The position numbers and the translations under genes are program-made. A model generated the notes under the pieces. The model did not search any database. It was not told where the DNA came from and worked only from the letters and a program-made list of their open reading frames with translations. A stretch of 61,352 nt of DNA, filler included, from Nemertoderma westbladi (Eukaryota > Animalia > Xenacoelomorpha): assembly GCA_032718475.1 (NCBI GenBank). It is 3 parts of 3 records of this genome, joined end to end, with 100 filler letters (N's around TTAATTAATTAA, not from the genome) between each part and the next. Parts side by side here need not be neighbours in the genome. Positions count along the whole stretch, not along the records: positions 1 to 25,508 come from JAUCBJ010005237.1; 2 more parts are not named here. The stretch is one strand, 5' to 3'. Positions 8,461 to 47,111 of the stretch are shown piece by piece; position 1 is the first letter of the stretch; the number at the start of each line of letters is the position of its first letter.

Positions 8461-8753
8461 ATATCAAACTAGCAAACCATTGTACTGTACTCTAGACTTA
8501 ATGTAAATTACATAATGAATGATGAATTGCACAGTATATTATATAAACAATTATATTATACTACTGTATATTTAGCACTGTTTTCAGATTCACAAATAGT
8601 CTCCAGAAAGAAAATATCCGCTGTGGCATCCACCATGTCATCCGGAGCCGCGGGAGGCAGCATACCAGTAAGAGCCGAAACTTCTGCTTTTGCCTTAATT
8701 GTCTTCAAATAGATAAGATAGCGGTTATCTCGGATCAACTGGCGATTCTCCGC

Positions 8754-8773
8754 AGTAGTAGGGGTTTGGCCGG
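8754..8773 (+). mobile_element. Terminus of a Polinton-like TIR, split by the BEL insertion
   Basis: AGTAGTAGGGGTTTGGCCGG continues at 20297 as CTCGGTGACAGTTGGACCCC, homologous to the TIR starting at 38119. Confidence 0.8.
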
Positions 8774-10032
8774 TGTAAAAGCTTCTGTGGGATATAACTG
8801 GCCCCTTTGCTTCGCAATCCAGTTTCCCCCCAGGCGCTGGAATACTCTAAAAAAGGTTCTCTAACTGTATATATATTCCCCTCGCCCGCAAGGTACCGTT
8901 ACAGGTGTTTTAACGGACATAAAAGTCATTCTGCTATATACGTGTTTTAGCGGACATGGTAAGGCAAAAAACCCGCAATATGGCAAATACTTTTACACAG
9001 CTTAGCCGTGATGATTCAGATTACGACATCTAGCAGCTGGTTGCTGACATGGAAACAGCCATTGGACGCATGGTTCTTTGTTTGGCTTGAGCCAATCAGA
9101 GCGTTTTTTCCTGTCGACGTGTAGCTTTTCGGCCGATCATAAGGAGAGTGTTCAGTCTTACTGTTTTTACTTGGTACTTTGTTGTTATTGCTGTCTAAGC
9201 CAGAAACACCGGCTCTAGAGTTAATTCTTTTCATACTTTAAGAAGAAACATTAGTAGGCTTAAATTATAGAGCGTATGACTGTTATCAGTCAAATCCATT
9301 CACAATTCAATACTTTGTTGTTATTACTGTTCAACATACATTATTATACTGCTATTTACTGTTGTGTTTGGTTGAATATTATTTGGAGAACATATATAAA
9401 GAACCCAAATTTCCCAATTTTCTTGATACACTACAGGTTAGAGAGACGGGTTATATATATAGCGATTGCGACTTATATTGTTGTGGTTTGTAGTGAATTT
9501 AATGCTATTTGATAAGCACTACATTGGTCCGTTGCTATTCCCTTTATATATGATAAAATACATTGACGGGCGGCAAATTAATGAGCAGTATTGTGTGTTA
9601 CCGGTAGTGTGCATGATTGTGACCGATAACTAAGCATTTCCTAAAGAATGCGCCTCATACGTGAATCATAAGCCTTACCGACTTACCGTTGTGATTAGTA
9701 TAAGTCATATCTCTGTTTACTTAGATAGAGCGCCACGTCCTAAAGGAACTGTTAATATTTCCCGAAAGTAAATAATATTAGTCAGAAATTAATTATTAAT
9801 GATCAATCGAATAATACAATACCGTAAGCTTCACTGCAATAATAATCTAAGCCGACAGAATCCAGTCTCCCGGGATTATCCAGCGGGTGAATGGACGCGC
9901 ACTAGGCTGGCTTCTGCTAATGTTGTGTTTATTGGTATTAAATATTTGTCATCTTCTAAAGTATATTTGTAAACCAAAAGACATATAAATTTTGGCAGGT
10001 TAAACTGCTAAAGGTCTTCAAAAGCGCGTACA
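8774..10032 (+). repeat. 5' LTR (1259 bp)
   Basis: TGTAAAAGC...GCGCGTACA; no differences from 19033-20291 seen by eye; both give identical ORF translations. Confidence 0.95.
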
Positions 10033-10043
10033 ATAACAGTCAT
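10033..10043 (+). promoter_or_regulatory. Non-tRNA primer-binding site, complementary to LTR positions 9276-9286
   Basis: ATAACAGTCAT directly after the LTR; reverse complement ATGACTGTTAT at 9276-9286; no TGG start. Confidence 0.7.
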
Positions 10044-10319
10044 TGACTTTATTGCAGTAAGCAATAAAGTTGAAAGTACCGGTAAACCTGAACCGGTACT
10101 TCTGTAGGTCTGTAGGCCCAACTGTCCTAACCGGTACTGCTGTATCAGTACATTAGTATTATTCGATTTTGATTATTGTATACCGGTAGGTCTCGATATT
10201 AAATCGGGGACGCCTGGTTTTTATTGGGATTTTACTTAGGTCTATTTCTGTCAGTTTTATTTACTAGTAGGCTAATATTGAGCAGAAGGCGTGTGACCCT
10301 GCTCAGATTGTTCAGATAA

Positions 10320-10890
10320 TTGTAGGCCGGACTGTTGTTAGATTGTTGTTGGGTTTGGAGAGATTACGGCGTGTGTAGAGTTTGTCTGATAGAGTGCCGT
10401 TAGTAAGTTGGGGCAGCCATATGCTGCAAGGTCAATCCCCTCTTAAAGAATAAGTCGTACTACCGTGTTAGAACGCATACTAACTAACTATTTCAGAATC
10501 TGCACATACTGTAGTTTATTTAGGCTTGACAGTATTCTGCCAGCGTTTTGGCTTGTGTTTGTTTGTGTGGTCTGTTCAGATACCGTAATAGTTATTACTC
10601 AGATATTTTGTAGGCTGGATTGTTGTCTAGCTATTATTGGGTCTGAAGAGATTGCTGTGTGTGTGGAGTTGGTCTGATAAAGTGCTGTTAGTAAGTTGGG
10701 GCAGCCATATGCTGTAAGGTCAATCCCCTCTTAAAGAATAAGTCGTACTACCGTGTTAGCACGCATACTAACTAACCATTTCAGAATCTACACGTACGGT
10801 AGTTTATTTAGGCTTGGTGGTAGTCTGCCAGCGTTTTGGTTTGTATTTGTTTGAGTATTCTGTACGGGTAGCGTAATATTTATTATTCAG
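10320..10890 (+). repeat. ~288-bp tandem duplication in the BEL leader
   Basis: gtg(c/t)..ttagtaagttggggcagccatatgctg at ~10394 and ~10682; also duplicated in copy 2 (~27550-28120). Confidence 0.85.
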
Positions 10891-12197
10891 AGTTTATGCG
10901 ATTATTCGCAACATTCATGTCCCCAAGTTTATTCCTACAGTAATTGTGTTTGTTACACATACCGTTATAGTTAAATTAACCCCGGTACTACACGGGCTGC
11001 TTGGCGTAGGTAAAGACTGGTGACTTTGTGCTTCGGTCGCTCCAGCAGATGCCGTGGTTCTTTTAACTGTTCAAGTATATTTAACTACTGATTATTTGTT
11101 ATACCGGTACTTGTACCTAATTTAGGGTTTAGTGTACAGTGCTTTCCGAAGTAATTAGTGTGTAGGCAGTATATTTGTGTTGTAAAGTGGTTGATAGGCA
11201 CATTCGTTAGCTCTATTAACTTCTGGGTAGGAACAATCCGTGATACATAACGTAGTACCTATAGCGATACGGTTATAGGTCGTCAGGCGGTGGTATTTTC
11301 CTATCTGGACAACGCAGTGTATTTACTACTACTTATTATTTCAAATACCGTAGTACCCTGTCCATTGTAATAACCAGAATTCTAACCCTTTGTTAGGCTG
11401 GTTTGTAGACTTCCTGTAAAATTACCCTAAAAAATTCGTACGTAATATTTTGTTGTGTTTAATTAGAGAATTAATCTCACCCATATCGTAAGTAATTTGT
11501 AGTATTAAGTAACTTAGGTAAATTAGAATTATCTGTTTTAGTGTCCCATAGGTAGCACTTCACTGAGAGCGCACAGCTTCTGTGTAGTGACTCCCCCAGA
11601 AATAATAACATTTATTTCAAATATTGACAAAACCCTTTTAAACGGGTATATAAATATTATAAATCAACTCAAACGATTTATAAATAGTAGGCCTGCCATA
11701 CAACAACTAGGTCTCAAAATCAGTTGGACTACTGCTTAAATAACGGTAACAAAGTAAGTTAAAGTAACCAAGTAACCCTAAAATATTCAGAAATTCAATT
11801 ATTCTAAAATAATTGATATACCGGTATTTACCATAGGCTTATTATATTTATTTCAATAAATTTGTGCTGAAATCATACCGGTACTCTGTAATTAATTATA
11901 GTCCAGAATTATACTTATATACTATAAGTGTAGGCTGTATACCGGTATTCACGATAGGCCTATTATATATTTATATATATTTGTGCTAAAATTATATACC
12001 GGTACTCTGTGACAAATCTAGTCTGTAATAATACTTATATATATTATAAGCATACCGGTATTCTAATATATTATATATATATCACGCTACACTGAGTAGC
12101 AGTATCGGTAATTAATTATTAGGCTAACAGTGATACTGAATTACTAGACTTGCTTTAACTGTAATATAGCAGTAGACATTCAACTGTACAATCAAAC

Positions 12198-13715
12198 ATG
12201 GCTGACACAAGGCAAACTCTGTCAGATAGTCTCCTAGAAACAACAGCCTGTTTCTCAGATCAAAGTGTAGAGAATCCCAGACCGAGGTCTGAAACCCCTC
12301 ATACTGTAAGAAGGGCAACCCCTGCAATGGTTGTGTCAGAACCTAGGTTGGTAGAAAAGATTTCGCAATTTGCGAAGTTAGTGAAGCGCCGTTGGTCTGC
12401 CATAGGCACTCGGGCCCAAGTCAAGCGGGATCAAGAAGAAGCTATAAAACAGCAGCAACCTCCTAGCCAAGAACCTAGTTCTCAGCGGCCCGATAGCTCC
12501 AGTAGTTCGGATACTGTTGAGCGGATGCCCGAACGCGGAGCGAAGATGGAGGATACGGTTTATGATGAGCGGCCAACCTATGAAGAATCAACCGACGCCA
12601 CTTCTTCTCAAGTGGAAAGTGAGGTGGAAAGCGAAGTGGAAAGCGAGGTGGAAAGCGAAGTGGAAAGCGAATTAACATCAGCAGAGAAGCCGCGAACTAG
12701 AGACGCTATCGACATTTATTTGTCCGACTATCAGCGATTCCTAGGAGACGAAGAGTTGAGGAGACGGCTGTCTGGACTTTCCCCTAATAGTGAAGGAAAC
12801 AAGCTTGTGTTGGACTCAATCGATGCCGAAATGTTAGCTGCAAACCAAGCTGAATGTGATGAAAAACTCCGCCTCGTTAGAGTCCAAGAAGAAGAAGTAA
12901 AGAAAGAACTGATAGAGAGAAGAAAGGTAGCAGCAGCAGCGGCGGCGGAAGCAGAAGCAGAAAGAAAAGAAGCAGAAGCCGAAAGAAAGGCAAAAGCGGC
13001 GGAAGCAGAAGCAGAAAGAAAAGAAGCAGAAGCCGAAAGAAAGACAAAAGCGGCAGAAGCAGAAGCAGAAAGAAAAGCGGCGGAAGCCGAAAGAAAGGCA
13101 ACAGTGGCAGAAGCAGAACGGAGAGCGTCCGAGGAGACTATCCAACTAGAGTTGGAAAATCTGCAAGAGACGCAAGACAGTATAAATAAACAGTTTACTG
13201 CTAATCAGATGCAGATGATGAGAAAATCTACTCCCAAGCGCCAGGGATACACATCCTCGGAGGAAGGCGATACTACCGATCCTGAAGGTGGAGGAAATAG
13301 ATCCCATCTAAGTAGGCGTAGAAAAACATCTTACCGTCACAAATTGCCTGATTTGCCCCCAGCTGTTAGAAGACAGCTAGCTAGCACAGACTTGAGTAGT
13401 ATAGAACCCACAGAACAAATTATTCAGGTCACAAGACTCCCTACAATAGTTGATGAGCCTGAAATAATTAGGCCTGTCGTTCCCAAAGTCACTTCTGTGT
13501 TAGAGACCCCTGTACTTCCAGAGCTTAACTCTAAATTCCCTTTGCATAGTACTACACTGCCTGTACCCGGTGGAACAGTCCAAGAGAATATCCCTGTCCA
13601 GATAGCAGAGAGAGAAATCAAAAATTTGTCTCCCGTCGTGCCGCGTCAGCCCGCTACTATGTTGGCGACTCCCGCTTCGGCGGTTGAGTGGGTGGAAGAG
13701 GGACGGGGGGGATGA
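12198..13715 (+). CDS. N-terminal Gag-associated ORF (coiled-coil, low complexity)
   Basis: 505-aa ORF with (VESE)n and (AEAERK)n repeats; abuts the gag ORF at a G7 run. Confidence 0.7.
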   Translation: MADTRQTLSDSLLETTACFSDQSVENPRPRSETPHTVRRATPAMVVSEPRLVEKISQFAKLVKRRWSAIGTRAQVKRDQEEAIKQQQPPSQEPSSQRPDSSSSSDTVERMPERGAKMEDTVYDERPTYEESTDATSSQVESEVESEVESEVESEVESELTSAEKPRTRDAIDIYLSDYQRFLGDEELRRRLSGLSPNSEGNKLVLDSIDAEMLAANQAECDEKLRLVRVQEEEVKKELIERRKVAAAAAAEAEAERKEAEAERKAKAAEAEAERKEAEAERKTKAAEAEAERKAAEAERKATVAEAERRASEETIQLELENLQETQDSINKQFTANQMQMMRKSTPKRQGYTSSEEGDTTDPEGGGNRSHLSRRRKTSYRHKLPDLPPAVRRQLASTDLSSIEPTEQIIQVTRLPTIVDEPEIIRPVVPKVTSVLETPVLPELNSKFPLHSTTLPVPGGTVQENIPVQIAEREIKNLSPVVPRQPATMLATPASAVEWVEEGRGG

Positions 13716-15637
13716 ATCTCCTGCTAGGACAGATGCAGGAGACTGTCCACCAACTTAAGGGAACAGTGAGGGAAGGTAGAGCAGAGTTGCAAGAAGTGCA
13801 GCAAAGTATCGCGCTAGAACGCGACAAATTAGTCAATATACAAAAGGGCATACCAATACCCCCTGTAACATTGTGTCAACCTGTTAGGTCTGAAGTATTA
13901 CATGCGCAAGGTGTGGAGCCTACACGCATCTATACTGCTAGTGAAGTTGAAACTCCTATAGCAAACCCTATTAAGGGTGATTATAGACCTGTTATTAATG
14001 ATATTCCCTATAGACCTGATAATGATCCGATAAATTTATATACCGATAATTCGATATTAAATAACACGATGGCCCAAGAAAGCTTTACGCGTCAGATGGC
14101 TAGAACAGAAGCCCGCCAAGCGGTCAAAGTGGGAGAGATCGTCAAATTCAATGGAGATGAGATGAAATGGTTACCTTTCAACGAATATTACAAAGATAGC
14201 ATACAGAACTCTGTACTATCTAACGGAGAGAAACTTAGATTCCTCATCAAGTGCTTGGAAGGACCTCCCAAGTTAATGGCGTTAAAGTTTATTGGACATC
14301 CAGATGGATTAAGACAAGTTTGGGATACATTAAACATCAGGTATGGTAACAAGGATAACATAGCTAAGTATTTGTATGCAAAATTAGTAGCCCCCCGACA
14401 CTTCCTTAGTAGCGGGATTATAGAGTTTTCCGATGAAATTCAAGAGATCTGTAGACAACTGGACTGGTTAGGTAAGTCGCATGAATATCAGAGTTCCATG
14501 GTTATTGGAGCCGTAGTCTCTACTTTACCAAAGGGTGGAGTATGTACACGCTGGGACAAGAAAGTGTTGTACATGAATGAACAACAACGACGAAGTCCTA
14601 CCATGGCTGATCTCATGTCTTTCTTAGATAGTGAAGTAAAATTACAACTCATAAGGCAGTCCAGAGAGAAAACATCGGAAAATAAGGTAAGTGAGAAACC
14701 CGTTTCTAGGAGAAGGATAATACCAGTGTGTTATACTGACGACGGCGAAAGCCAAGCTTCTCAAGAAGAGGACAGCGGGAAAGACACAGCAAAATCTTAC
14801 TATGACAACAAGAACTATAAAGACGTAAGTAAATACAAGTCTCGAACCAGTGACAGGAGAGAACAGGTAACAACAACGCCTCCTACGTCTCCTAAGAGAA
14901 TTCACGGAAGAAAGCCCGAAGAAAGAACGAGAGTGCAGAACGTTAACCAAGTTAAGGTGAGTAACATCAAACCAAAATGTGCGCTGTGCGACGGGCCCCA
15001 CCGTTTGAGTGCGTGTGCAGAATTCCTAAAGAAATCCCTGGCAGATAGACGTGGAGTCCTGTGGGATAAGCGGTTATGTTATAACTGTCTCAGACGCGGA
15101 CACCAGCGGCGAACCTGTTACTCTGACGCAAGGTGTGCTAAGTGCGGCGCGAAACATCATAGCTTGTTGCACACGGAATTCGAACGAAACAGCCCGAGTC
15201 AGGTAAGTGAGCCCAAATCACATGTCCAATTCAGTGATGTGAACGACACTGACCAAAGTTCTGAGTGGGAAGGATTCTATACGGACGAATTCTCCGATGC
15301 CAACGAATCCTGTTATCTAATAAATACCGCAGTGTATCGAGCACTTACGTACGAAAAAGACACCGACACGGAGTTCCCCCCAACCACCTTTGACAAACAA
15401 CCATCTTGGAAAGCTCCAGCTTCCAACGTAGGAATCAGAGAATTTCCTGTAGTTCAAGTAAGAGTTCACGGTCTTAACAAAAGCTACATAGTGAACGCCC
15501 TCCTTGACTCCGGCAGCACAGGAACATTCATCGATCAAGAACTAGCCGAAGATATCTTTGCTGGACAACCCAAGTTCCGGACCCTTCCCGTAGAACTCTC
15601 AAAGAGAGATTACCTCAACAACAGGTATACCAAGTAA
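13688..15637 (+). CDS. gag: BEL/Pao Gag + aspartic protease
   Basis: KFNGDEMKWLPF..LSNGEKLRFLIKCLEG (DUF1759-like), three Cys/His fingers CALCDGPHRLSAC / CYNCLRRGHQRRTC / CAKCGAKHHSLLH, protease ALLDSGS. Confidence 0.93.
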   Translation: MGGRGTGGMNLLLGQMQETVHQLKGTVREGRAELQEVQQSIALERDKLVNIQKGIPIPPVTLCQPVRSEVLHAQGVEPTRIYTASEVETPIANPIKGDYRPVINDIPYRPDNDPINLYTDNSILNNTMAQESFTRQMARTEARQAVKVGEIVKFNGDEMKWLPFNEYYKDSIQNSVLSNGEKLRFLIKCLEGPPKLMALKFIGHPDGLRQVWDTLNIRYGNKDNIAKYLYAKLVAPRHFLSSGIIEFSDEIQEICRQLDWLGKSHEYQSSMVIGAVVSTLPKGGVCTRWDKKVLYMNEQQRRSPTMADLMSFLDSEVKLQLIRQSREKTSENKVSEKPVSRRRIIPVCYTDDGESQASQEEDSGKDTAKSYYDNKNYKDVSKYKSRTSDRREQVTTTPPTSPKRIHGRKPEERTRVQNVNQVKVSNIKPKCALCDGPHRLSACAEFLKKSLADRRGVLWDKRLCYNCLRRGHQRRTCYSDARCAKCGAKHHSLLHTEFERNSPSQVSEPKSHVQFSDVNDTDQSSEWEGFYTDEFSDANESCYLINTAVYRALTYEKDTDTEFPPTTFDKQPSWKAPASNVGIREFPVVQVRVHGLNKSYIVNALLDSGSTGTFIDQELAEDIFAGQPKFRTLPVELSKRDYLNNRYTK

Positions 15638-15645
15638 AGGGGGAA

Positions 15646-16053
15646 GTGGAGAGCAGTGATGTGGACGATCCAACTGAGGGAACACCATACTCCTCAGATA
15701 ATGACGATATTAACTCCAATGTAGATCAATGGAGACATTGCCTTGGGACGATTAATCCAGCCGACATCGATTCCAGAGGAGCAACTCCTCAAGAACTGAT
15801 AGATACTCCAGGCTGGTTAGGTGGATCCAACTCCTTAAGTAAGGAAGAAGAAGAATGGCCTCCTCATCTTACCACGGCAGAAATTAGACAGGCCAAGGGA
15901 GCGGAGAAAGTAACACAACAACTCAATCGCCCAGCTAGTCGTTTATGTTTACTGGAAAGAGACCGAAAACTGTCCGGAAACTATGGAAGGCAAGATACTC
16001 TTCCTACGACTACTTCCCTAATCCGACAAATATCTAGGGACTCCATAACGTGA
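15646..16053 (+). pseudogene. Pol remnant: end of Pao RNase H joined to the extreme C-terminal motif
   Basis: WRHCLGTINPADIDSRG...WLGG...WP followed by RPASRLCLL; RT and integrase core absent. Confidence 0.8.
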
Positions 16054-17675
16054 TAGCATGTGGAGTGGGCGTGTGACTATATCATTTTATATTTGTTTTT
16101 ATTTTATATTTATGTATGTATTATTATATAATTTTATTATAATCGTTTTCTTTAATTTTATTTAGTAGAATGTTATTTTAGAATATTTAGTAAATTAGTG
16201 CAATATATTAGTGTTTATTACGTATTTAATTACTTACAATATATTTAGTGCGACGGCAAGAAATAATTATTTTTCTCTTTCCTTACTGTCCGTATTATAT
16301 TATAAATGCGAGACTATAGTAAGATGACATGTCAGTACTTCTTAAAGTACAATAAAGCCACTACTATATTTAAGTATTATTGGTAGGCAGAGTATTAGGA
16401 ATGCAAAGTTCAGATCCTCGTGTCTCGGCTAAACCAAGCTCTGGGTAGACCTTGGAAACGACTTGCCTCTTCACACTGACATTGCTTCGTGCGATATTGC
16501 TCTTCTACCTTATAACAAATAATACATATAGTAGCGTGATGTCCCTCTAACAGTAGCGTAAATCGCAAATAAATCTGTTAAACTTTTTGACCATCTGTAA
16601 TTCTAGTCGATTAAGATATCGCGGCACCCACCGATATACTTGAAAGACAAATTCTAGAATCAGTGGTTAACGTCCCCAGACAAGTTCTGGAATAAATCGG
16701 TGCCCATCTTAAATATTAATTTAATATTTAGTAAAAATCTGTAAAATTCAGGTCCCAATTTCTAGTCAATTAAGATATCGCAGCACTTACCGATACTCTT
16801 AAAAGACAATTTTATAGAATTAAGGATCCTATGTCCCCAGACTTGCTCTGGAATCAAATTGTGTCAATTTTAACATCAAATAATAAAATTCACGGGAATA
16901 AATTCAAATTCATATTTTAAATGAATTGCATAAATTGTCATTTTGTACAATTTATAACATTCCCAAAATTCCATTAATTAATAGATCATGGGAGCGGAGA
17001 TTCATCCTATTGAGTGTATTAGAGTGTGAGAATCTCCAACATATAGTCAATAGCCGATAAAATTAATAAAATCATGCATAAAGAGGATATTGACAATTAA
17101 AGAATTATTATTAAATAGCATCCCAGATCTGTATGCATGAGAATTACCCTAATTCTACCGCTAGCATTCCATAATGTCACCATAGCAACACCCACGCTAG
17201 AATTAGAAGCAAGTTAAGAAAACAATAGAAAGCTTGTCACATTGCATAGCATAGAGAATACATAGCACGCTGTTAGTATCCAAGGATACACAGTAATAAC
17301 GTGACATTCTGGAAGGCACTGACTAACGGACAAATGGCCTGTATGTGTACAATTGGTGACAGTTGTGTGGAATTTGTGCGTTTGTAGGTGAATGTTACTG
17401 CTAAGGTGTGTTTACAGTAGCTAGTCGCAATTGTGAAAGTAACCCAACTCTCCTATAGAAAGAACCTAAAGTGGATTCAAGCCTTTGGGACAGACAGTGG
17501 AGTGACTTGTGCCGGTTGTCGTTGTCGTACTGTTGCTACATGTTGGCGTAAACACCGCGACAACGGTATATCGGCGCTGAGGATCCCACTGTCCGGGGGC
17601 AAAGAGAGGTAGGCAGCGACGTCCGCTCGCCTAAACATAAACTCATTTCGATATTAACAAACTCAGATAGCAGAT

Positions 17676-18074
17676 ATGACGGAGTTGATAGAAGATGATC
17701 TTGGTATCAAGGAGCGATATACTCTACCTTTGCAAGCCTTTGTGGATAGCTTAATACGCGGTGAAGCCGATCCAACCATTACGGAGGACGATGGTCGTTA
17801 TATCGAACCGCCGATGTCCCAAGAGCAACTTACGCGTGAATTGGACTATCGAAAATTCACCGCTCGCTATACGCATCGTAATAATACGTATATGGACCTC
17901 CTAACTACCGGCCATCCTATCGATTTACATGATACGGACGATGTAGACACCGAAAGGGAAATGGTTCTATTTAAATATCATACCCAGCGGCGTCGTAACG
18001 ATAAATCGAGAATAGATCACGAAAATTCTATTCGTAACAGACTGGGAAGACGAACCAATATGCCTAGAATCTGA
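17676..18074 (+). CDS. Unknown accessory ORF A in the BEL 3' region
   Basis: 132-aa ATG ORF in a GC-richer block; no recognisable motif. Confidence 0.5.
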   Translation: MTELIEDDLGIKERYTLPLQAFVDSLIRGEADPTITEDDGRYIEPPMSQEQLTRELDYRKFTARYTHRNNTYMDLLTTGHPIDLHDTDDVDTEREMVLFKYHTQRRRNDKSRIDHENSIRNRLGRRTNMPRI

Positions 18075-18124
18075 GGAGATTCAGCCTATCGCGCTCGGAA
18101 CAGCGACAACGATTACATCCTGGA

Positions 18125-18655
18125 ATGGTATCAAGGTCCACTGCGTACGATTATCGCCATGACAACTGTGTTTCTCGGCAACGTTGTCGGTTATGCGCAT
18201 CGAGAGACCATGTTACGCCCATGGACACAGACGTCCGCTGTTCCTATTTCCACGAACAACCGGCGATGGAAATTTATTGCGCGTATTGCAGATTTAATGA
18301 TTTGCACGTTTTTGCGGTTTGCCCTCAATTTGTGACTCAATGTCACCATTGTCAACTGGGGGGACACGCCAGTTTCGATTGCCCTTTTAATCGCGATTTG
18401 GAGGGCGTGGATGAAATGATCACACTACGTTACATTAGAGCTTGGGAAGCGAAGGCTGATTTACATCGTGATTCGCGCCATCGCTATTATCCTGGACGCG
18501 CTTACGAAGGAATTTATGCGTTCCATCCTTATCTATTCGCTTCTGTCGAACAGAAATCACGCATATCGAGTTACAGGAAGTATATCGACGGCCTTACGAA
18601 TACCGAGCCCGTGAACGCGAGTTGGAAAGGACCATTAAACCCCGGAGGTTTCTAG
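18125..18655 (+). CDS. Accessory zinc-knuckle protein (ORF B)
   Basis: CRLCASRDH, CAYCRFNDLHVFAVC, CHHCQLGGHASFDC (CX2CX4HX4C). Confidence 0.65.
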   Translation: MVSRSTAYDYRHDNCVSRQRCRLCASRDHVTPMDTDVRCSYFHEQPAMEIYCAYCRFNDLHVFAVCPQFVTQCHHCQLGGHASFDCPFNRDLEGVDEMITLRYIRAWEAKADLHRDSRHRYYPGRAYEGIYAFHPYLFASVEQKSRISSYRKYIDGLTNTEPVNASWKGPLNPGGF

Positions 18656-18954
18656 CTGCCTATAGTCCACCCACGACCCTCGTTCGGACCACTCGTAAAG
18701 GACCCGTAAGAGCGGCTGTCTTAAAACGCGCTCTCAAAGCCGTTAGACCCCTCTCCCCCGACGTTGATGTCAATCAACCCGGCACTTCGACTGGCGGATA
18801 CACCGACCATAATCCTACACCCTCTGATGCAATCATATTGCACCCTTCACCCAGGAGTTATAGCCCTCCTTGTAAAGTGGCTCGCCCCAAAGAGAAAAGG
18901 ACTCTGGCTAGCTTTAAAAAACTGCGTAAACGCCGTCCGCGCAAGAAAGACTAA
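18622..18954 (+). CDS. Accessory basic/Pro-rich ORF C
   Basis: Ends FKKLRKRRPRKKD*; C-terminus and stop retained in copy 3 (~47252-47377). Confidence 0.5.
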   Translation: MERTIKPRRFLAAYSPPTTLVRTTRKGPVRAAVLKRALKAVRPLSPDVDVNQPGTSTGGYTDHNPTPSDAIILHPSPRSYSPPCKVARPKEKRTLASFKKLRKRRPRKKD

Positions 18955-19032
18955 CTGTTTAGAGTATTTACGTATATTAGAAACTGTGATTTTGTATATT
19001 TCATAGACTCAAATCCCATTTTCTGGGAGCGG

Positions 19033-20291
19033 TGTAAAAGCTTCTGTGGGATATAACTGGCCCCTTTGCTTCGCAATCCAGTTTCCCCCCAGGCGCTGGA
19101 ATACTCTAAAAAAGGTTCTCTAACTGTATATATATTCCCCTCGCCCGCAAGGTACCGTTACAGGTGTTTTAACGGACATAAAAGTCATTCTGCTATATAC
19201 GTGTTTTAGCGGACATGGTAAGGCAAAAAACCCGCAATATGGCAAATACTTTTACACAGCTTAGCCGTGATGATTCAGATTACGACATCTAGCAGCTGGT
19301 TGCTGACATGGAAACAGCCATTGGACGCATGGTTCTTTGTTTGGCTTGAGCCAATCAGAGCGTTTTTTCCTGTCGACGTGTAGCTTTTCGGCCGATCATA
19401 AGGAGAGTGTTCAGTCTTACTGTTTTTACTTGGTACTTTGTTGTTATTGCTGTCTAAGCCAGAAACACCGGCTCTAGAGTTAATTCTTTTCATACTTTAA
19501 GAAGAAACATTAGTAGGCTTAAATTATAGAGCGTATGACTGTTATCAGTCAAATCCATTCACAATTCAATACTTTGTTGTTATTACTGTTCAACATACAT
19601 TATTATACTGCTATTTACTGTTGTGTTTGGTTGAATATTATTTGGAGAACATATATAAAGAACCCAAATTTCCCAATTTTCTTGATACACTACAGGTTAG
19701 AGAGACGGGTTATATATATAGCGATTGCGACTTATATTGTTGTGGTTTGTAGTGAATTTAATGCTATTTGATAAGCACTACATTGGTCCGTTGCTATTCC
19801 CTTTATATATGATAAAATACATTGACGGGCGGCAAATTAATGAGCAGTATTGTGTGTTACCGGTAGTGTGCATGATTGTGACCGATAACTAAGCATTTCC
19901 TAAAGAATGCGCCTCATACGTGAATCATAAGCCTTACCGACTTACCGTTGTGATTAGTATAAGTCATATCTCTGTTTACTTAGATAGAGCGCCACGTCCT
20001 AAAGGAACTGTTAATATTTCCCGAAAGTAAATAATATTAGTCAGAAATTAATTATTAATGATCAATCGAATAATACAATACCGTAAGCTTCACTGCAATA
20101 ATAATCTAAGCCGACAGAATCCAGTCTCCCGGGATTATCCAGCGGGTGAATGGACGCGCACTAGGCTGGCTTCTGCTAATGTTGTGTTTATTGGTATTAA
20201 ATATTTGTCATCTTCTAAAGTATATTTGTAAACCAAAAGACATATAAATTTTGGCAGGTTAAACTGCTAAAGGTCTTCAAAAGCGCGTACA
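19033..20291 (+). repeat. 3' LTR (1259 bp)
   Basis: Direct repeat of 8774-10032, preceded by PPT. Confidence 0.95.
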
Positions 20292-20296
20292 GCCGG

Positions 20297-20690
20297 CTCG
20301 GTGACAGTTGGACCCCACTGACACACTTTGGGTGTCATATGACACCCAATTATCACTCATAGGGTGTCATTGGCGCGAGACTGTCAGGGTGACACCTCCC
20401 AATTAGACTAATTAGACCCTAATTGACGGTTATCATCAATTAAGTAGTACATTTAATCCCTAATAGGTGTCTTATGACTCCTAATTAGGGTTTAATTGAT
20501 TATTCTAATTAATCACACCGATTAGTGCCCTGACACAATGGGTCATCAGTGTTGTCCAACCATCACCTAGAGGCCCAAATAGGTGTCTTAAGTGACACCT
20601 CTGGTCTTTTATTTATTGATACTTAATTATTTGTATTTAAGTTGGTATTTAAGTATTTAAGTCAGTAAGTTATTTAATTTGTTCGACTTT
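20297..20690 (+). mobile_element. Diverged Polinton-like TIR (remainder)
   Basis: Collinear with ~38139-38500 (gggtgtcatatgacacccaattatcac...ctaattaggg...). Confidence 0.85.
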
Positions 20691-21093
20691 AGGCTCTGGT
20701 CCAAGTCCATCAGGATCAAGCCGTCCTATTCTAGGTCTGGTATTACACAATGTCATTATTAATGACGTCTACATCGTTTGTATATAATCATTGTTATTGT
20801 TGTTATGTTGCTATGCAACGTTACGAAAATCCTTGTACTGTTAGCCTGGCTCGTTCCAGCATTGCAACACTAGTGGTTGATCTGAGTAATTCAGTTAGCT
20901 AGTTTTTGTTAGCTAGTAAAATTTTTTAAAATTATATTGTCTTCTAATTTTATTTGGAATACAACACTTTACTTGGAAAGCCAAAATATTTTAGAATAAG
21001 CAAAAAAATGTACCATAAATAAAATATAAAAAATAAGTTTTAATAGGATTGGTGACTCAAAAAAAAATTGTATATTTTATATAATTTGTATAT

Positions 21094-22136
21094 TTGTATT
21101 GGCCGGGAATGTTTAATGACATAACCTCATTTATTAGTTCATGTCGCTTCTGCCAAGAGAGATTACCAGCCAAACCAAGGGATCCTCTTATACAAAAGCC
21201 ATTACCAGAACGACCATTTCAAGAAATAGCCAGTGATATCGCTATAGTTAGTGGAAAACAATACCTGATCAATGTATGCTGCTACAGTGACTGGCCTGAG
21301 ATACATTGTTTGGGAAATAATTCCACATCCCCTGCAATCATTGACTCTCTAAAAGACTTCTTTGTCCGGACATCAGTCCCAGATGTATTTTGGTCTGACA
21401 ATGGCCCCCAATTCAAATGTCATAAAATGAAAGAATTTCTGGCTGACTGGGGAATAGAACATAAAACCAGCAGCCCCCACCATCCACAGTCGAATGGAAA
21501 AGCAGAAGCAACTGTAAAATCAATGAAAAAGTTAATTCAATCCAACCATAAAGGACACGTACTCAATATTAACGGTCTGAGACGCGCTCTTCTTTCATAC
21601 AGAAATACGCCATGTCGCCGCGATGGCCTATCCCCTGCTATGAAACTGTACGGCCGACCAATTCAGGATCGCCTACCAGCTCACCGTTCTTCGTACAATT
21701 GATACTACACAGTACACTGTGTGAAATTACACAGATAATTACAAAATTGAAATATACAGATGAAGGCTAAAGCATACTTCGACATACATACACGGCCCAA
21801 TGACTCATTCAAAATAGGGCAAATGTTTTAATATGGAATATGATAACCCGTCGGTGGAACTTATCTGGTAGCGTTATAGAGGTAATAAACCCACGTAAAT
21901 ACGTTGTTCGAACTACCAGCGGGCGTGTTCTAACGCGCAATAGAAAACATCTACATCGCCAACAAATGCTACCTGCTGCCATTCCGGTGAACGTCAAACC
22001 GCACGTAGATCACTCGGAAAATCCACAACCGATGAACACTATGGAAAAACCAATACATTCTACAACATGTCCACCTCCGCGTAGAAGTTCTAGGCAAGTT
22101 CGAAGACCAATACGCTTAATAGAGGAGATGGAATAA
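21094..22136 (+). pseudogene. Ty3/Gypsy integrase fragment
   Basis: YWPGM..CRFC, PFQEIASD, SDNGPQF, SSPHHPQSNGKAE, RVLTRNRKHL; internal stop. Confidence 0.9.
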
Positions 22137-25508: not shown

Positions 25509-25608
25509 NNNNNNNNNNNNNNNNNNNNNNNNNNNNNNNNNNNNNNNNNNNNTTAATTAATTAANNNNNNNNNNNNNNNNNNNNNNNNNNNNNNNNNNNN
25601 NNNNNNNN
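25509..25608. other. Assembly gap spacer
   Basis: N-run + TTAATTAATTAA + N-run; same at 47012-47111. Confidence 0.95.
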
Positions 25609-28600
25609 TCAACACGTATCCTACTGCAGGACTGGTAGGTTGCTCGGTTGAATGGATTGGCGACAGCCGTGGTGAGTTGGCGATCGATTCGATATAATAG
25701 GGTAGTGTGGGGCTAGCCACACGATGAGAGGTTTGGGTACGCGAAGATGAATATGCTATGGTTGGTTGATGCAACGACGCGAACCAATACTGACGGGAGG
25801 TAACAGCTGTAGGAGTAAGGAGGGCATCGCGAGGTTAGGCTACGCGTAGGTGATACGCAGCGATTGGTTGAAGGCAACGACGCGAATCAATACTGTTGGT
25901 GACAGATGGTCATTAAACACCTCGATTTAGCACCGGAATTTGGCATTTTTTAATTGCCTCCGAGATGTGGCCCGTAGCCCAGGCTAGGGAGGAGTTAGCC
26001 GAGAACTATGCTTCTCCTACTACTGGCATCCAACACAAGCTTGGTTCCTTCACTATTAGGGCTAAGTCCCTCTAACCTTCTCCTCAACTCGTCATCACCT
26101 AAAAAAACGTTGATAGTCTGACAGATAGATGTCAATGGCATCCCTCTTATGCGGTTTCTCTGCCATCACTTCGCTCTCGGTTGTATCTAGTAGACTGTCT
26201 GACAGGTTCTGCTTTGCGTCAGACATGTTTGTTTATACAGTTGAATGCCTACTGCTATATTACAGTTAAAGCAAGTCTAGTAATTCAGTATTAACTGCTA
26301 GCCTAGTAATTAATTACCGATACTGCTACTCAGTGTAGCTTGATATATATAATATATTATAATACCGGTATGCTTATAGTATATATAACTATATAAGTAT
26401 TATTACAGACTAGGTTTATCACAGAATACCGGTATAATTTTAGCACAAATATATAAATATATAATAGGCCTATCGGGAATACCGGTATACAGCTTACAGT
26501 TTGTAGTATATATAATTCTGAACTAGAATAAATTACAAGTACCGGTATAATTTCAGCCTAAATTTATAGAAATAAAGATAATAGGCCTATCGTAAATACC
26601 GGTATATCAATTATTTTAAATAATTGAATTTCTGAATTTTAGAGTTACTTGGTTACTTTACTTACTTTATTACCGTTATTTGAGCAGTAATCCAACTGAT
26701 ATTGAGACCTAATGGTTGTATGGTAGGCCTACTATTTATAAATCGTTAGATTTGATTTATAATATATATATACCCGTTTTAATGGGTTTTGTCAATGTTT
26801 GAAATAAATGTTATTATTTCTAGGGAGTAATCACTACACAAAGCGGTGCGCTTTCAGTGAAGTGTTACTTATAGGACACTAAAACAAATAATACTAATTT
26901 ACCTAAGTTACTTAATACTACAAATTACGTACAATTCGGGTGAGATTACAATCTCTAAGTAAACACAAAAAATTTACAAAAACACAAAATACGAATTTTC
27001 AGGGTAATTTTACAAGAAGTCTACAAACCAGCCTAACAAAAGGTTAGAAATCTGGTTATTACAACGGACAGGGTACTACGGTATTTGAAAATAATAAGTA
27101 GTAGTAAGTACACTGCGTTGTCCAGATAGGAAAATACCACCGCCTGACGACCTATAGCCGTATCGCTACAGGTACTACGTTATGTATCACGGAGTGTTCC
27201 TACCTAGAAGTTAATAGAGCTAATCGAACGTGCCTATCAACCACTTTACAACACGAATGTAATGCCTACTAATTACTTTCGGAAAGCACTGTACACTAAA
27301 CCCTAAATTAGGTACGAGTACTTGTATAACATATAATCTGTAGTTAAATATACTTGAACAGCTAAAAGAACCACGGCATCTGCTGGAGTGACCGATGCAC
27401 AAAATCACCAGTCTTTACCTACGCCAAGCAGCCCGTGTAGTACCGGGGTTAATTTAACTATAGCGGTATGTATAACAAACACAATTACTGTAGGAACAAA
27501 CTTGGGGAATGAATGTTGCGAATAATCGCATAAACTCTGAATAATAAATATTACGCTACGCGTACAAACCACTCAAACAAAATGCAGACCAAACACTGAC
27601 AGACTACTATCAAGCCTAAACAAACTACGGTATATGTAGACTCCGAAATGGTTAAGTAGTATGCGTTCTAACCCAGTAGTACGACTTATTCTTTAGATGG
27701 GGGTTTACCTTACAGCTTTTGCTGCCCCTACTTCCTAACCGTTCTTTATCGGACAGATGCTTTACACACACTGAAATTTCCTCAAACCCAACAGCAGCCA
27801 GACAACTATCCAGCCTACAAATTATCTAAATAAATTATACGCTACCTGTACAGACTACACAAACAAAGTACAGACTCAACGATGGCAGACTACTCTCAAG
27901 CCTAAATAAACTACAGGACATGCAGACTCCGAAATAATTAGGTAGTATGCGTTCTAACCCAGTAGTACGACTTATTCTTTAGTTGGGGGTTTACCTTACA
28001 GTATTTGCTGCCCCTACTTCCTAACCGTTCTTTATCGGACAGGTGATCTACACGCACTGCAATCCGTTCAGACTTAACAACAATCAGACAACAGCTCAGC
28101 CTACAAATTGTCTGTACAATCTGATCAGGCTTACACGCCTTCTGTTCAATACTGGCCTACAACAAATAAAACTTGACAGAAATAAGTAAAAATCTCAATA
28201 AAAAACCAGGGCGGCCGTTCCCTGATTAAGTACTAAGACCTACCGGTATATAACTATCAAATTCGAATAATACTAATGTACTTATACTGGAAGTACCGGT
28301 TAGGACAGTTGGGCCTACTGACCTACAGATGTACCATTCAGGTTTACCGGTTGACCGGTACTTTCAACTTTATTGCTTACCGCAATAAAGAAGCATATAT
28401 CCGTTATTGTTCGCGCTTTCAGACCTTTGGCAGTTTAACCCGCCAAATTAGGATGTCTTCTAGATAATAAATCACCTTTAGCCTATGACAAGTATTTAAT
28501 TCACTACACTAGTCGAAACCAATCTGTGCGCGATCATTCACCCGCTGGATATACCCGGGAGATTGGGTTCGACGGCTTAATTTTATTGCTATGTAAGCCT

Positions 28601-29605
28601 AATGTATTATTCGACTGACAGTATTATATAATCTCTGACAATATTATTCACCTTCGGGGAATATTAACAGTTCCTTTAGGACGTGGCGCTCTATCTATAC
28701 AAACAGAGTTATGACTTAAACTACTCACAACGATATGGCTTAGTTATAATTCACATATATGGCGCATTCTTTAGGAAATGCTTCGTTATCAGTCTCACTC
28801 ATACACAATGCTGCACAATACTGCACACTAATCTGCCGATCTTCACTGATTTTAGTCACATATAAAAGGAACACGGACCGAATCATGTAGGGTCTATCAA
28901 ATAACATTAGATTCACTTCAAACCACTTTAACATAAGTCACAATTGTTATATGTAACCCTTCTCTCTTACCTTCGGTATATCAAGAATATTGGGTTTCGG
29001 GGTTATTTACCGTTATTCCAAATATAATAATTCATCAACCATATTATGAAGAACTGACAGTAAATAGCAGTATAACAATATAAAGTATGCACAGGTTGTT
29101 CGATTAGGTATGGTATGTTATGTTGTGATAAATGCAGATAACGGATATATGTCCTTATAATTAAGCCTACTAGTGTAGGGCTAAAGCCGTTCTTCCTGGC
29201 TTAGAATCACCAACAACACTAAAAACTGAAAAAGAATAACTATAAGAATACCAGCTACCCTTATTCTACAAAGATCTCATCCACCACAGAGAATGAGCAT
29301 ACAGATAGGAAATTCAGTTCAGTAGATCTGTGATAGGTCAAAATCAAAACCAACTCAAATCCTATTGGCAGATACAGAAAGCAGGGCTTATGGGGCAACG
29401 TGGCAATATCAGCCGTTAGCCGTCGTCATGGTAGCGACACTGTTTTCAAGAGTATAAATCCTCTAAAGTACAAATACAGAAGAAATGGCTTTTATGTCCT
29501 CCAAAACACCAGTACAGCAAGGACACGGCCTTTTTATGCCTGGTAAACCAACCACAGAGTACTTTACGGGGATAATAACCGGCTAATTACGCAAAAGCTT
29601 TTACA
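25609..29605 (-). mobile_element. BEL/Pao family copy 2 (5' LTR, leader and degenerate ORF start; cut by gap)
   Basis: LTR 28408-29605 (TGTAAAAGC...GCGCGAACA on minus); 26050-28400 collinear with copy 1 leader and ORF start. Confidence 0.9.
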
Positions 29606-30230
29606 GCTTGACCCCATTGTTTATATCGTATTGGGGCTGTTAAATGCCTATGTACCGTGTATTAATTGTATTGTATACCTTGGAGTCGTTGTTGAAGCTT
29701 GGCCCCATTGTTTATATCGTATTGGGGCTGTTAAATGCCTATGTACCGTGTATTAATTGTATTGTATACCTTGGAGTCGTTGTTGAAGCTTGACCCCATT
29801 GTTTATATCGTATTGGGGCTGTTAAATGCCTATGTACCGTGTATTAATTGTATTGTATACCTTGGAGTCGTTGTTGAAGCTTGACCCCATTGTTTATATC
29901 GTATTGGGGCTGTTAAATGCCTATGTACCGTGTATTAATTGTATTGTATACCTTGGAGTCGTTGTTGAAGCTTGACCCCATTGTTTATATCGTATTGGGG
30001 CTGTTAAATGCCTATGTACCGTGTATTAATTGTATTGTATACCTTGGAGTCGTTGTTGAAGCTTGACCCCATTGTTTATATCGTATTGGGGCTGTTAAAT
30101 GCCTATGTACCGTGTATTAATTGCATTGTATACCTTGGAGTCGTTGTTGAAGCTTGACCCCATTGTTTATATCGTAGTGGTGCTGTTAAACGCCTACCGT
30201 GTATTAATTGCATTGTATACCTTGAAAACA
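29606..30230 (+). repeat. 91-bp tandem array, ~7 copies
   Basis: gcttgaccccattgtttatatcgtattgggg... starting at 29606, 29697, 29788, 29879, 29970, 30061, 30152. Confidence 0.95.
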
Positions 30231-31164
30231 TTATAGAAGCTTGGCATGTTGCTGTCCCATTGTTTATCACACTTATAGTGTATACCTCGAACATATAATA
30301 TCTATAATGAGCTAAAACTGTCTACCTTGGTATAAAAATGTCTACCTTGGAACGAACAAACTCTTTCACTTCCAAGGGATACAAATTCCAAGGGATACCG
30401 TCTTATACCAAGGTATACCAATATACTGCAGTATCATAGAAACGGGAAGGGCAGCGACAATTTATCTTAGCCAACACAAAGGGCTCTATAGAAGTAATTA
30501 AAATTGTAAGTGCCGATATAAACCCGTTCGTTTGTAGAAAATGACAGGCAGTCAAAGTTATGTTCCAAGGGTATACATATTTATCCAAAATCGTATCCTA
30601 CCCTCCTTAAACAGATTGTGTGGTCAAATTGCAGGAAGTAGGAGGGTCGAATAGATATAATTTGGGAAGCAGAATCAATACTCATTACAATAAATGTTTA
30701 TTTGGCGGCATTCCGACACCATGTAGACAGTCTGTAGATGTTGTTTATACACCATTTTTTTAAAGAAAAAAGTGAAATTCTATATAGTTTGTTATGCTAG
30801 ACGTTGTTTTAAGCCATGGGTCATGTTTATGTGCCCTTTGTGATTAAATGAAGAAGCAACGTCCACTCTATCGATTGGTATATAATATTGGCCAAGATAT
30901 TCAAGTCATATTTTTGTATGGCAGCTTATTTCATGGGGACTATATTTTGCAACGCCCAAGGTAGACACCAAGGTATACATTTTTATGACTTGACTTCTTG
31001 TAGTGAAAATACAATATTAGTGTGCAACTCAGATTTTATCTATGTTGTAGAGCTCGCTCTAATCTTCCAAACGAGCCATCAACCATTAAAATCGGTTGAT
31101 GTAAACTGGATTTATAAGCAAAAGTGTGAATTTGCAAAAATGTGCCATCCTTACTGACCAATGA

Positions 31165-32870: not shown

Positions 32871-35720
32871 CTACTACTACTACTAGGATCGGCATGCTGC
32901 ATTGCAGCTGCATTTTTAAGAATGCTGTGCCGGCTTATCGACAAAATCGCACCGCCACAACTCCCTATCACCCATGACATTTGCTAGATCATCCGCATCT
33001 TCAAGGCCAGTGTCCTTTAAGATGCGTCTCAAGAAAGTCATGGGTTGTCCACCATGCTTATTCACTCCATGAGGCTGCCAAAGTACAAGATTATGCACTG
33101 GCTGGTCCTCACGGCGAAAGCAATGTCCTGCAAAGCGGAGCCGATTTTGTTCTAGTGTCAAGCTTGGGGGAACCAATGAGACACCTCCAATGTTATATAG
33201 TGTCTGGTTGGAGATGTGTGCATTGTACTTGACACAATGTACCCGGCGTAGCATTCTTGTGAATGTGCCATCCAGAGATTTGGTGTCCTCAGCAGTTAGA
33301 GCCCAGCATGGACTCCCGTAGAGGAGTACTGGAACTACTGCTGCTCTAAATAACCGGACCTTAAGTTTCCGATTAATTCTAGGTGACTTCCAAATCCTGG
33401 AAAGCCTATTCAAGGCTGCCCATGCCTTTCCCTTACGTATTCGAAGGTCCTCACCTGACTTCCGGATCCATGATCCCAGGTAACAGAAGTCGTCCACATG
33501 CTCAAGCATACCATCCTTTGAGCTTATGCTCATCCGATCAGAGACTTGCTGAGGACTTTCAAAGTTAACTGTCAGAATTTTGGTCTTTCTGGAGTTAATA
33601 AAAAGACCAACACTAGAAGCAGCATGTTCTAATGAGCTGAGGAGCCGCTGGGCTCCCTCTAATGATTCTGAGAGTACTCCTAAGTCATCAGCAAAGTCTA
33701 GATCAGTTAGGTACTTGGCAGGATTTCCTCGACTTCTGGAGCCAGTAGGTGGAGTTATCATCACCCCATCATCATTATGATGATCTAAGGACATGCGTAG
33801 AACATAGTCAACCACAATAATGAACAAGAATGGTGCAAGTGTGTCTCCTTGGAGGACGCCCCATAACACTTCAAATGGTTCTGTGTCACCGTCAACAGTA
33901 GACACAAATGTTGTTGAACCATCGTATACTGATCTGATTGCTGCAATAATTTCATCAGGAATCCCATATAATGAAAGTATGCTGAACATACGTGAGCGAG
34001 AGACTGAATCAAAGGCCTTGAAGAAGTCAACAAAGATAACAGCCAGATGCCTGTCTTTCTTTTTTGATAACTCTTCAATTATCCTTCTAAGTGCCAAAAT
34101 GGGCTCCATGGTCCCACGACCTTTACGGAACCCATTCTGATTTCCACGTAGCAGTCTCTCAATGGGATCCCTGATGCGATTTAATAGAATTCTATTGTAT
34201 AGTTTTGCAGCAATCGAGATCAATGAGATTCCCCGAAAAGAACCATAGAGTGTTAGGTTGCCTTTCTTGGGAACTGGCACCAACTTATTTGTTTTCATTT
34301 CTTGTGGGACTCTTGTTGTACGGTACATGTCTACTATGATGGGATAGATGAGCTCTAAACACTCAGGTATTTTAAAGACCTCAGGGGGAACACCATCTAC
34401 TCCACTGGCACGATTGGTCTTAATGCTCTTTGCAGCAGCATTCACTTCTGCAAAGGAGATATCGCCAATGGGAATATCTGGGAGTACAGACTCAGACACT
34501 TTTACTTCTATAAAGTTATCAGGCAATACCCTGTCATTATTGAGGAGCTTTTCAAAGTGGGCTTTCCAACCATTGAGGCGATCGGCTGGTGATTCAGCCT
34601 TAACCTTGGTGGTTGGTTGGCTTTTCCGCCCAGTAAGCAGATTGATCGATTTCCATGCCTGGGATGATTGCCTGCTGTCGTCAGCATCATTGATGGCATC
34701 AACCTGTTGGTTTATTAGCTCCTGTAGATTAACAGAGTACTGCCTGTTCAGGGACCTAGATGCAGCTTTAACTGCATTCTTGGCCGCTGTAGTCTGTTTG
34801 AGTCGGGACTCTTTCTGCGCCTTATGAAGGTCATTTCGGCACTTCTGAATTTTGTTGTCAGTCCAGGGGGCCCTTTTCCTGTTTCGAGGGTATACAGGAA
34901 CTGTTTCTGCAGCTGCTAACTTAACTGCTTCTGTAAAGGCAGTATAGCCCTCACAGTGATCTGCCGCCTCAGAGGCAAGAGCCTCATACCTGTTGCTCAG
35001 CTGTAGTGTGAAGCTGGATCTCACACTTGGCTGTTGCAACAGAGAGGACCAGTCATGCCGTGGCAAGGCAGATTTCGTTCTTCTGCTAGCACGCAGACTA
35101 AGTCTTACCTTGGCCACAATAAGGCGGTGATCACTGGAGAAGGGTCGAAGTGTAAATGCATTACAGTCTTGTATAGAGCTCCTGTATTTCCTACGAAACA
35201 GAATATGGTCTATCTGGGACTTGTGACCACTGGGTCCACTATGAGTCCATAGCTTTCCAGTTCGCTTCTTGAACTGGGTTCCAGCCGAAAACAATCCATT
35301 TCCAGAGATAAAATCCTGAAGATGGACAGAATTTCGGTTAACACTATTGCTATAGACCCAGGGTGATGTCGGTGATTGATGCAGACTTGCATTAAAGTCT
35401 CCCAGGAATGTTAAGAATGCATGCTGATCCACTCCATCAGTAGCTGCTTGTAGATTGTGGTAGAAATTTTCCACCTCCTCTACAGGGGCAACACTAGTTG
35501 GAGAGTAGCACACAATCAGAACCACCTTAGGAAACTTCTTAGCCAGTCTTCCAGAACATGAGAAGTGGCAACGGATGATGCGGTTAGAGATTTGGTCTAT
35601 TTTGTCCAATGCTGCATGTGCAGTTGGATTCATCAATAGACCAATTCCACCATTGCCACTATCATCTGCTGACGCGAGGGCGAGTCGCCAACCACCCCCC
35701 ATGTCCCTGACAGTGACAGA
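32871..35720 (-). mobile_element. RTE-type non-LTR retrotransposon, slightly 5'-truncated
   Basis: Uninterrupted APE+RT ORF, very short 3' UTR, (TAG)n tail. Confidence 0.92.
32916..35702 (-). CDS. APE endonuclease + reverse transcriptase
   Basis: YSPT, GDFNA, QIDHIL, SDHRL; QNGFRKGR, FVDFFKAFDS, GVLQGDTLAP, FADD, YLGS. Confidence 0.95.
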   Translation of the reverse strand: MGGGWRLALASADDSGNGGIGLLMNPTAHAALDKIDQISNRIIRCHFSCSGRLAKKFPKVVLIVCYSPTSVAPVEEVENFYHNLQAATDGVDQHAFLTFLGDFNASLHQSPTSPWVYSNSVNRNSVHLQDFISGNGLFSAGTQFKKRTGKLWTHSGPSGHKSQIDHILFRRKYRSSIQDCNAFTLRPFSSDHRLIVAKVRLSLRASRRTKSALPRHDWSSLLQQPSVRSSFTLQLSNRYEALASEAADHCEGYTAFTEAVKLAAAETVPVYPRNRKRAPWTDNKIQKCRNDLHKAQKESRLKQTTAAKNAVKAASRSLNRQYSVNLQELINQQVDAINDADDSRQSSQAWKSINLLTGRKSQPTTKVKAESPADRLNGWKAHFEKLLNNDRVLPDNFIEVKVSESVLPDIPIGDISFAEVNAAAKSIKTNRASGVDGVPPEVFKIPECLELIYPIIVDMYRTTRVPQEMKTNKLVPVPKKGNLTLYGSFRGISLISIAAKLYNRILLNRIRDPIERLLRGNQNGFRKGRGTMEPILALRRIIEELSKKKDRHLAVIFVDFFKAFDSVSRSRMFSILSLYGIPDEIIAAIRSVYDGSTTFVSTVDGDTEPFEVLWGVLQGDTLAPFLFIIVVDYVLRMSLDHHNDDGVMITPPTGSRSRGNPAKYLTDLDFADDLGVLSESLEGAQRLLSSLEHAASSVGLFINSRKTKILTVNFESPQQVSDRMSISSKDGMLEHVDDFCYLGSWIRKSGEDLRIRKGKAWAALNRLSRIWKSPRINRKLKVRLFRAAVVPVLLYGSPCWALTAEDTKSLDGTFTRMLRRVHCVKYNAHISNQTLYNIGGVSLVPPSLTLEQNRLRFAGHCFRREDQPVHNLVLWQPHGVNKHGGQPMTFLRRILKDTGLEDADDLANVMGDRELWRCDFVDKPAQHS

Positions 35721-47011: not shown

Positions 47012-47111
47012 NNNNNNNNNNNNNNNNNNNNNNNNNNNNNNNNNNNNNNNNNNNNTTAATTAATTAANNNNNNNNNNNNNNNNNNNNNNNNNNNNNNNNN
47101 NNNNNNNNNNN
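47012..47111. other. Assembly gap spacer
   Basis: N-run + TTAATTAATTAA + N-run. Confidence 0.95.

Follow-up and report, generated by a model that had tools for sequence, protein, structure and literature searches.

A self-complementary primer-binding site in a BEL/Pao-derived retrotransposon of Nemertoderma westbladi, a candidate for Tf1-like self-priming

Belpaoviridae are regarded as primed by host tRNA, and their replication is poorly understood (ICTV, PMC8742986). The locus considered here lies in a window of 61,352 nucleotides (the whole stretch of Nemertoderma westbladi DNA that was analysed, filler included), and it raises the question of what primes minus-strand DNA synthesis in a BEL/Pao-derived element whose 5' LTR is directly followed by bases that form the exact reverse complement of a stretch within that LTR. 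A sequence-only reading had proposed that the family primes on its own RNA. Here, I weigh this proposal against the structure of the element, the changes that separate its copies, a set of control BEL/Pao elements and the rival uses to which such a pairing might be put.

The element and its copies

The first of three copies in the window (copy 1, plus strand throughout) is a BEL/Pao-derived element of 11.5 kb, with paired LTRs of 1259 nt each and a 5-bp target duplication. A raw repeat at 8771-10032 recurs at 19030-20291 with zero mismatches; the TG...CA ends and the GCCGG duplication, present on the left at 8769-8773 and on the right at 20292-20296, trim the LTRs to 8774-10032 (5') and 19033-20291 (3'), and so make 10033 the first post-LTR base. 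The call of the LTR end is further backed by a control locus with a tRNA-type LTR (L045 8615-9031), the final 8 bases of which are the same as those of the copy 1 LTR. The identical LTRs, together with the duplication, suggest a recent insertion. Judging from the sequence, a short purine-rich tract that adjoins the 3' LTR (19025-19032) is the likely PPT, and the same tract precedes the LTR of copy 3.

The coding content is that of a BEL/Pao element in part only. A frame at 13688-15637 encodes a BEL/Pao gag with zinc knuckles, followed by the start of an aspartyl protease (DUF1759, E 2.8e-12, with tblastn matches to BEL polyproteins; Asp_protease_2 at E 8e-4, under its cut-off), and a pol remnant at 15715-15861 sets in from just past the Peptidase_A17 region (with a best tblastn E of 4.8e-9, against residues 1171-1219 of a polyprotein of 1761 aa). 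When 27 full-length BEL/Pao polyproteins served as tblastn queries, they matched copy 1 in gag, in the protease and in one later piece of pol; neither RT, expected between the protease start and the remnant, nor integrase, expected after it, was detected in this search, and RT is absent from all three copies within the window. Of the BEL/Pao pol order PR-RT-RH-IN, copy 1 shows the start of the protease and then the later remnant. Among nine long proteins picked from the best 150 phmmer matches, DUF1759 occurs in 9/9 and Peptidase_A17 in 8/9. The assignment to BEL/Pao made by the sequence-only reading is thus borne out by both gag and the pol remnant, and copy 1, having a BEL gag, protease and pol piece and no detectable RT or integrase, is a non-autonomous derivative, which would have been mobilised in trans.

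Other frames surround this core. Ahead of gag lies an open frame of 516 aa (12165-13715), with a repetitive acidic/basic stretch and no Pfam family, and past the pol remnant lie two overlapping extra frames (17658-18655), the second of which carries a zinc-knuckle-like stretch (zf-CCHC_3, E 0.011, below cut-off; atlas matches <0.9). Profile and atlas searches placed none of these extra frames in a confident family. Atlas searches returned matches that were unnamed or <0.9, word-index protein searches gave 2 weak matches for gag and none for the pol remnant, and Rfam, run over 8700-20400, gave 4 weak matches, 0 at gathering score. In the leader, a tandem duplication of 286-288 nt is found in copy 1 (10320-10895) as well as in copy 2 (27543-28113).

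Copy 2, on the minus strand, consists of the 5' end only. Its 5' LTR of 1198 nt (28408-29605, delimited by alignment and length) is followed by the leader and the start of the first frame (26029-28393, blastn to copy 1), which end shortly ahead of a gap at 25509-25608. Copy 3, on the plus strand, is represented by a 3' LTR (47456-48652) that follows a gap at 47012-47111, its 5' end falling outside the window. Each of the two gaps is made of two N runs around a 12-base spacer, with copies 2 and 3 ending nearby. The LTRs of these two copies are about 95% alike across the final 600 nt; the possibility that they are both ends of one misassembled element was rejected, since their flanks and the 5' halves of their LTRs differ. 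The U3 looks either swapped or fast-evolving: over the first 400 nt (8774-9170 in copy 1) LTRs 1 and 2 are only 38-60% alike, and over the first 200 nt LTRs 2 and 3 are 35-46% alike, the LTR 3' halves being 70-97% alike. The LTR of copy 2 adjoins a 91-nt tandem array (29514-30243).

The family is highly repeated. Contigs of four sequencing runs, too short to span both of the sites discussed below, were compared with 8700-10400, and 11849 of them matched in run X1. Among the best 40 of 171 variant rows, 0 variants fall inside the primer or the primer-binding site. Contig depth, which cannot rank parts of the element, is minimal in the 9270-9326 bin in both X1 and X3, and a search of metagenome, viral and genome contigs with a 31-base LTR pattern gave no match. 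The window also holds two tRNA-Asp (GTC) genes in a 271-nt repeat (971-1044 and 1242-1315), an integrase fragment (rve, H2C2; 21085-21702), a LINE-like endonuclease-RT frame (32916-35729, minus strand) and a Ras/Roc-domain frame (56963-58921).

A site complementary to its own LTR

Minus-strand synthesis must begin at the first base after the LTR. The longest match of the LTR to the reverse complement of the post-LTR bases is 11 nt in copy 1 and 14 nt in copy 2, and in both copies the helix begins at exactly that first base, with zero pairs on the LTR side. In copy 1, the candidate self-primer, which would be the 5' end of the RNA, lies at 9276-9286 (plus strand) and is the exact reverse complement of the primer-binding-site position, 10033-10043; in copy 2, the corresponding 14-nt stretches are at 29138-29151 and 28394-28407 (minus strand). 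The spacing between primer and primer-binding site is 746 nt and 730 nt, respectively. All four strings and coordinates had been read correctly before. By alignment, the LTR primer sites of the two copies are homologous, each lying just past the motif TAGTAGGCTTAA, and a conserved motif just 5' of the candidate primer (9252-9263, plus strand) has 11 of its 12 positions in common among all three LTRs. The criterion for a self-primer set out in a part of PMC6317226 is complementarity of at least 10 bp, beginning 0-5 bp past the LTR; here, it is 11 and 14 nt long and begins with zero gap.

A TGG-type site, noted as absent by the sequence-only reading, is indeed lacking: no TGG occurs in the first 40 nt past the LTR in 2/2 copies, the nearest being at 182 nt in copy 1 and at 71 nt in copy 2. 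For this reason the element is filed as BEL/Pao-derived by its proteins rather than as a typical member.

The self-complementary feature is real and lies far beyond chance. In dinucleotide shuffles, LTR 1 reaches 11 nt in 4/5000 and LTR 2 reaches 14 nt in 0/5000; among anchors sampled across the window, 58/8807 reach a match of 11 nt in the 1259 nt ahead of them. Splicing as the source of the primer was considered and rejected, the best match across a splice joint being 8 nt in both copies as against 11 and 14 nt unspliced.

The comparison of copies 1 and 2 confirms that the primer and its site co-vary, as had been proposed for copy 2, where the pairing extends over 14 nt. Out of 11 shared pairs, 8 are identical, 3 have changed on both sides and 0 are broken; numbered from the LTR end, the identical pairs are 1-5, 7, 10 and 11, and those changed on both sides are 6, 8 and 9. 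The primer of either copy, if combined with the site of the other, forms anchored matches of 6 and 5 nt, with duplex energies of -8.7 and -2.4 kcal/mol, as against -12.4 and -17.0 kcal/mol for the native combinations. In the 3' part of the LTR, between the sites, 179/712 aligned positions differ between the two copies, so that the sites have diverged about as fast as their surroundings and the helix is kept. A rough model gives a probability of 0.003 that all 11 pairs would survive independent drift at this rate, although this covariation, drawn from the two copies that have both sites, amounts to one comparison. The primer-binding sites of both copies begin with ATAAC. In copy 3, the site at 47897-47910 matches the complement of the copy 2 primer-binding site at 12/14 positions, and one of the two mismatches falls at the predicted priming end.

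Control elements give a measure of what ordinary BEL/Pao elements do at this position. With a BEL profile, 80 loci were retrieved from metagenome contigs, and 53 of them were analysed, short or partial ones being left out; an LTR-like pair was seen in 29 and none in 24, and 13 are well delimited by TG...CA ends and a 5-bp duplication. In all of these 13 (10 LTR groups), the same TGG 14-mer occurs without variation, 0-9 nt past the LTR, even though the control LTR groups do not align with each other over 150 nt. Ordinary BEL elements therefore keep the site constant, whereas in the candidate family the site differs between copies and still pairs; the 13 controls, all taken from a single assembly, are distant relatives with shorter LTRs (309-510 nt). 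A self-match >7 nt was found in 0 of the 29 loci with an LTR-like pair, all 13 well-delimited elements included, and a splice-joint match of at least 9 nt likewise in 0/29, so that no further self-complementary BEL element emerged among them. The BEL profile had zero matches in viral contigs.

Self-priming and the alternatives

Taken together, the analysis makes it probable that this non-autonomous BEL/Pao family primes minus-strand DNA synthesis with its own RNA, in a Tf1-like manner. On this reading, the transcript would begin at or close to 9276, and its 5' end would fold back across some 750 nt to pair with 10033-10043; cleavage by RNase H behind 9286 would free a 3'-OH, from which RT would then copy U5 and R. 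Since copy 1 is without detectable RT or integrase, the enzymes for cleavage and priming would come in trans from another family member. The identical LTRs and the target duplication suggest, moreover, that copy 1, with no tRNA site, went through reverse transcription in the recent past. Self-priming, as put forward by the sequence-only reading, is thus retained as the best explanation, still inferred from two copies that hold both sites.

In its favour are the shuffle odds (4/5000 and 0/5000), the three two-sided changes, the lack of TGG and the zero-gap position. Against it count the presence of both sites in 2 copies only, the two of 14 positions at which the LTR site of copy 3 differs from the complement of the copy 2 site despite LTRs about 95% alike, and the length of the copy 1 loop, 746 nt. 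Copy 1 also has a local hairpin (9277-9292) that competes with the helix and that copy 2 lacks; it is formed by the six bases following the primer, which duplicate positions 5-10 of the primer-binding site. In copy 1, a TATA-like word stands 10 nt ahead of the primer, a distance too short for a start at 9276, and would place the start downstream of the primer; the three LTRs have no conserved TATA box at the expected distance. Between copies 2 and 3, differences are dense until about 100 nt past the primer and amount to only about 4-5% farther on, a step compatible with an R region about 100 nt long that begins with the primer, and also with a later start, with the primer in U3.

Folding predictions bear on the same point. 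A predicted hairpin near the LTR end (9991-10012, plus strand), U5-IR-like by position, has 8 pairs kept in 3/3 LTRs, with two one-sided and zero two-sided changes across them; another, directly 3' of the primer-binding site (10047-10069, plus strand), has 9 pairs identical in copies 1 and 2, and being invariant in both it carries no covariation signal. In local folds, the primer-binding site is predicted to be mostly unpaired between these two hairpins. In folds of the whole leader, for which prediction across 750 nt is unreliable in either direction, the copy 1 helix has a predicted pairing of 0.23-0.52 with the RNA 5' end at 9276, of <=0.06 with 3-10 extra 5' bases and of 0 with 26 or 76, and that of copy 2 has 0.71-1.0 with all four starts. 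To my knowledge, a fold-back of about 750 nt would be the longest known, possibly shortened by the splicing of an LTR intron of 288 nt. By eye, a candidate GT-AG intron of that length lies inside the LTR at 9437-9724 (plus strand), with donor-like and acceptor-like ends in 3/3 LTRs; it leaves the primer unsplit and, if spliced, would cut the loop to about 460 nt. The most conserved block of the LTR follows its acceptor.

The rival that survives best, though it is unlikely, takes the pairing to be a structural element, serving in packaging, dimerisation, a translation switch or 5'-3' circularisation via the copy in the 3' LTR (where the primer sequence stands at 19535-19545), while priming uses something else nearby. 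Covariation speaks for selection on the helix and not for the use to which the helix is put, and the two conserved hairpins that flank the site would suit such a role. A start downstream of 9286, which the identity step between copies 2 and 3 allows, would moreover leave the partner sequence only at the RNA 3' end. Yet the helix sits, in both copies, on the very bases that a primer must occupy, from the first post-LTR base onwards, and no TGG lies in the first 40 nt.

Less probable still is that a host tRNA fragment, or another small RNA, primes at the conserved ATAAC core, the match to the LTR being secondary. Priming by half-tRNAs is described for Osser, Bryco and Bianca in a part of PMC6317226, and the first five bases of the site are invariant in both copies. 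A host primer would nevertheless be expected to hold the site constant, as in 13/13 controls, and 3 of 11 site positions differ here, each matched by a change in the LTR. The anticodon arm of tRNA-Asn could presumably pair with 6-8 of the primer-binding-site bases; six tRNA-like genes, some of them doubtful and together no substitute for the host tRNA set (2 from the window, 4 from the fetched loci), match the site over at most 5 nt. As for an old inverted duplication or a chance match devoid of function, the many inverted repeats of the window, the 58 anchors that reach 11 nt and the limitation to two copies lend it some colour, but an unselected duplication decays one side at a time whereas all three changes are two-sided, and with the shuffle results this makes it very improbable. 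Self-priming stays the preferred reading in what follows.

Relation to known systems

A primer-binding site complementary to the element's own LTR is the hallmark of Tf1 and Tf2 of Schizosaccharomyces pombe, Tj1 of S. japonicus, the Tf1/sushi group and Tcn1 (Ty3/gypsy), and the candidate family resembles them in this respect. The Tf1 loop is several times shorter than the 730-746 nt of the candidate family. A U5 stem-loop is reportedly required in Tf1; in the candidate family such a hairpin is a prediction, as are the start site and the cleavage. Further differences from Tf1 are that the proteins of the candidate element are BEL/Pao, not gypsy, and that copy 1 is non-autonomous; membership of the Tf1/sushi group was accordingly rejected, gag and the pol remnant matching BEL/Pao and not Ty3/gypsy (chromovirus). 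Tf1 primes with its first 11 bases, RNase H cutting between bases 11 and 12 (excerpt of PMC7175516), and its primer-binding site begins with ATAAC (excerpt of PMC11042837), a start common to both candidate sites; this likeness was noticed after seeing the sequence, and then checked.

With Belpaoviridae the element shares the DUF1759 gag, the zinc knuckles, the protease, the pol remnant, the TG...CA LTRs and the 5-bp duplication. According to the ICTV description (PMC8742986), the primer site of the family is 18 nt long and fits tRNA-Arg or tRNA-Gly, the LTRs measure 0.2-1.2 kb and the genomes 4.2-10 kb; copy 1 departs from this in having no tRNA-type site, an LTR of 1259 nt, a length of 11.5 kb, and extra frames before gag and after pol. 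No precedent for self-priming in BEL/Pao was found in the titles and abstract openings of the literature searched, a scope that leaves subscription journals, Repbase entries and supplements outside, and in a BEL/Pao survey (PMC3118150) the words primer, PBS, tRNA and self are all absent.

Outside gypsy, the closest parallel is the TAR lineage of plant Ty1/copia (Houba, Osr-1), for which self-priming was predicted from LTR complementarity (PMC6317226, in part); the evidence is of the same kind, and the superfamily and kingdom differ. The extracts of PMC4600332, PMC3601003, PMC6317226, PMC13524379, PMC12440569, PMC11042837, PMC7175516, PMC5341516, PMC6934838 and PMC5445492 name self-priming only for gypsy groups and this copia lineage; as far as these extracts go, it is demonstrated in Tf1 and predicted in other gypsy groups and in the one plant copia lineage.

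A more tentative extension, which I regard as rather unlikely, is that a whole BEL/Pao branch lost tRNA priming and shares with Tf1 both the strategy and the ATAAC start of the primer site. If true, it would suggest that RNase H cleavage follows a sequence rule common to these elements, or else that self-priming is an ancient state among LTR elements. Self-priming in the present family, if true, would account for BEL elements to which annotation tools assign no primer site. It would also place self-priming in all three LTR superfamilies, gypsy, copia and BEL/Pao, and thereby bear on whether tRNA priming came late, a question raised in a part of PMC3601003.
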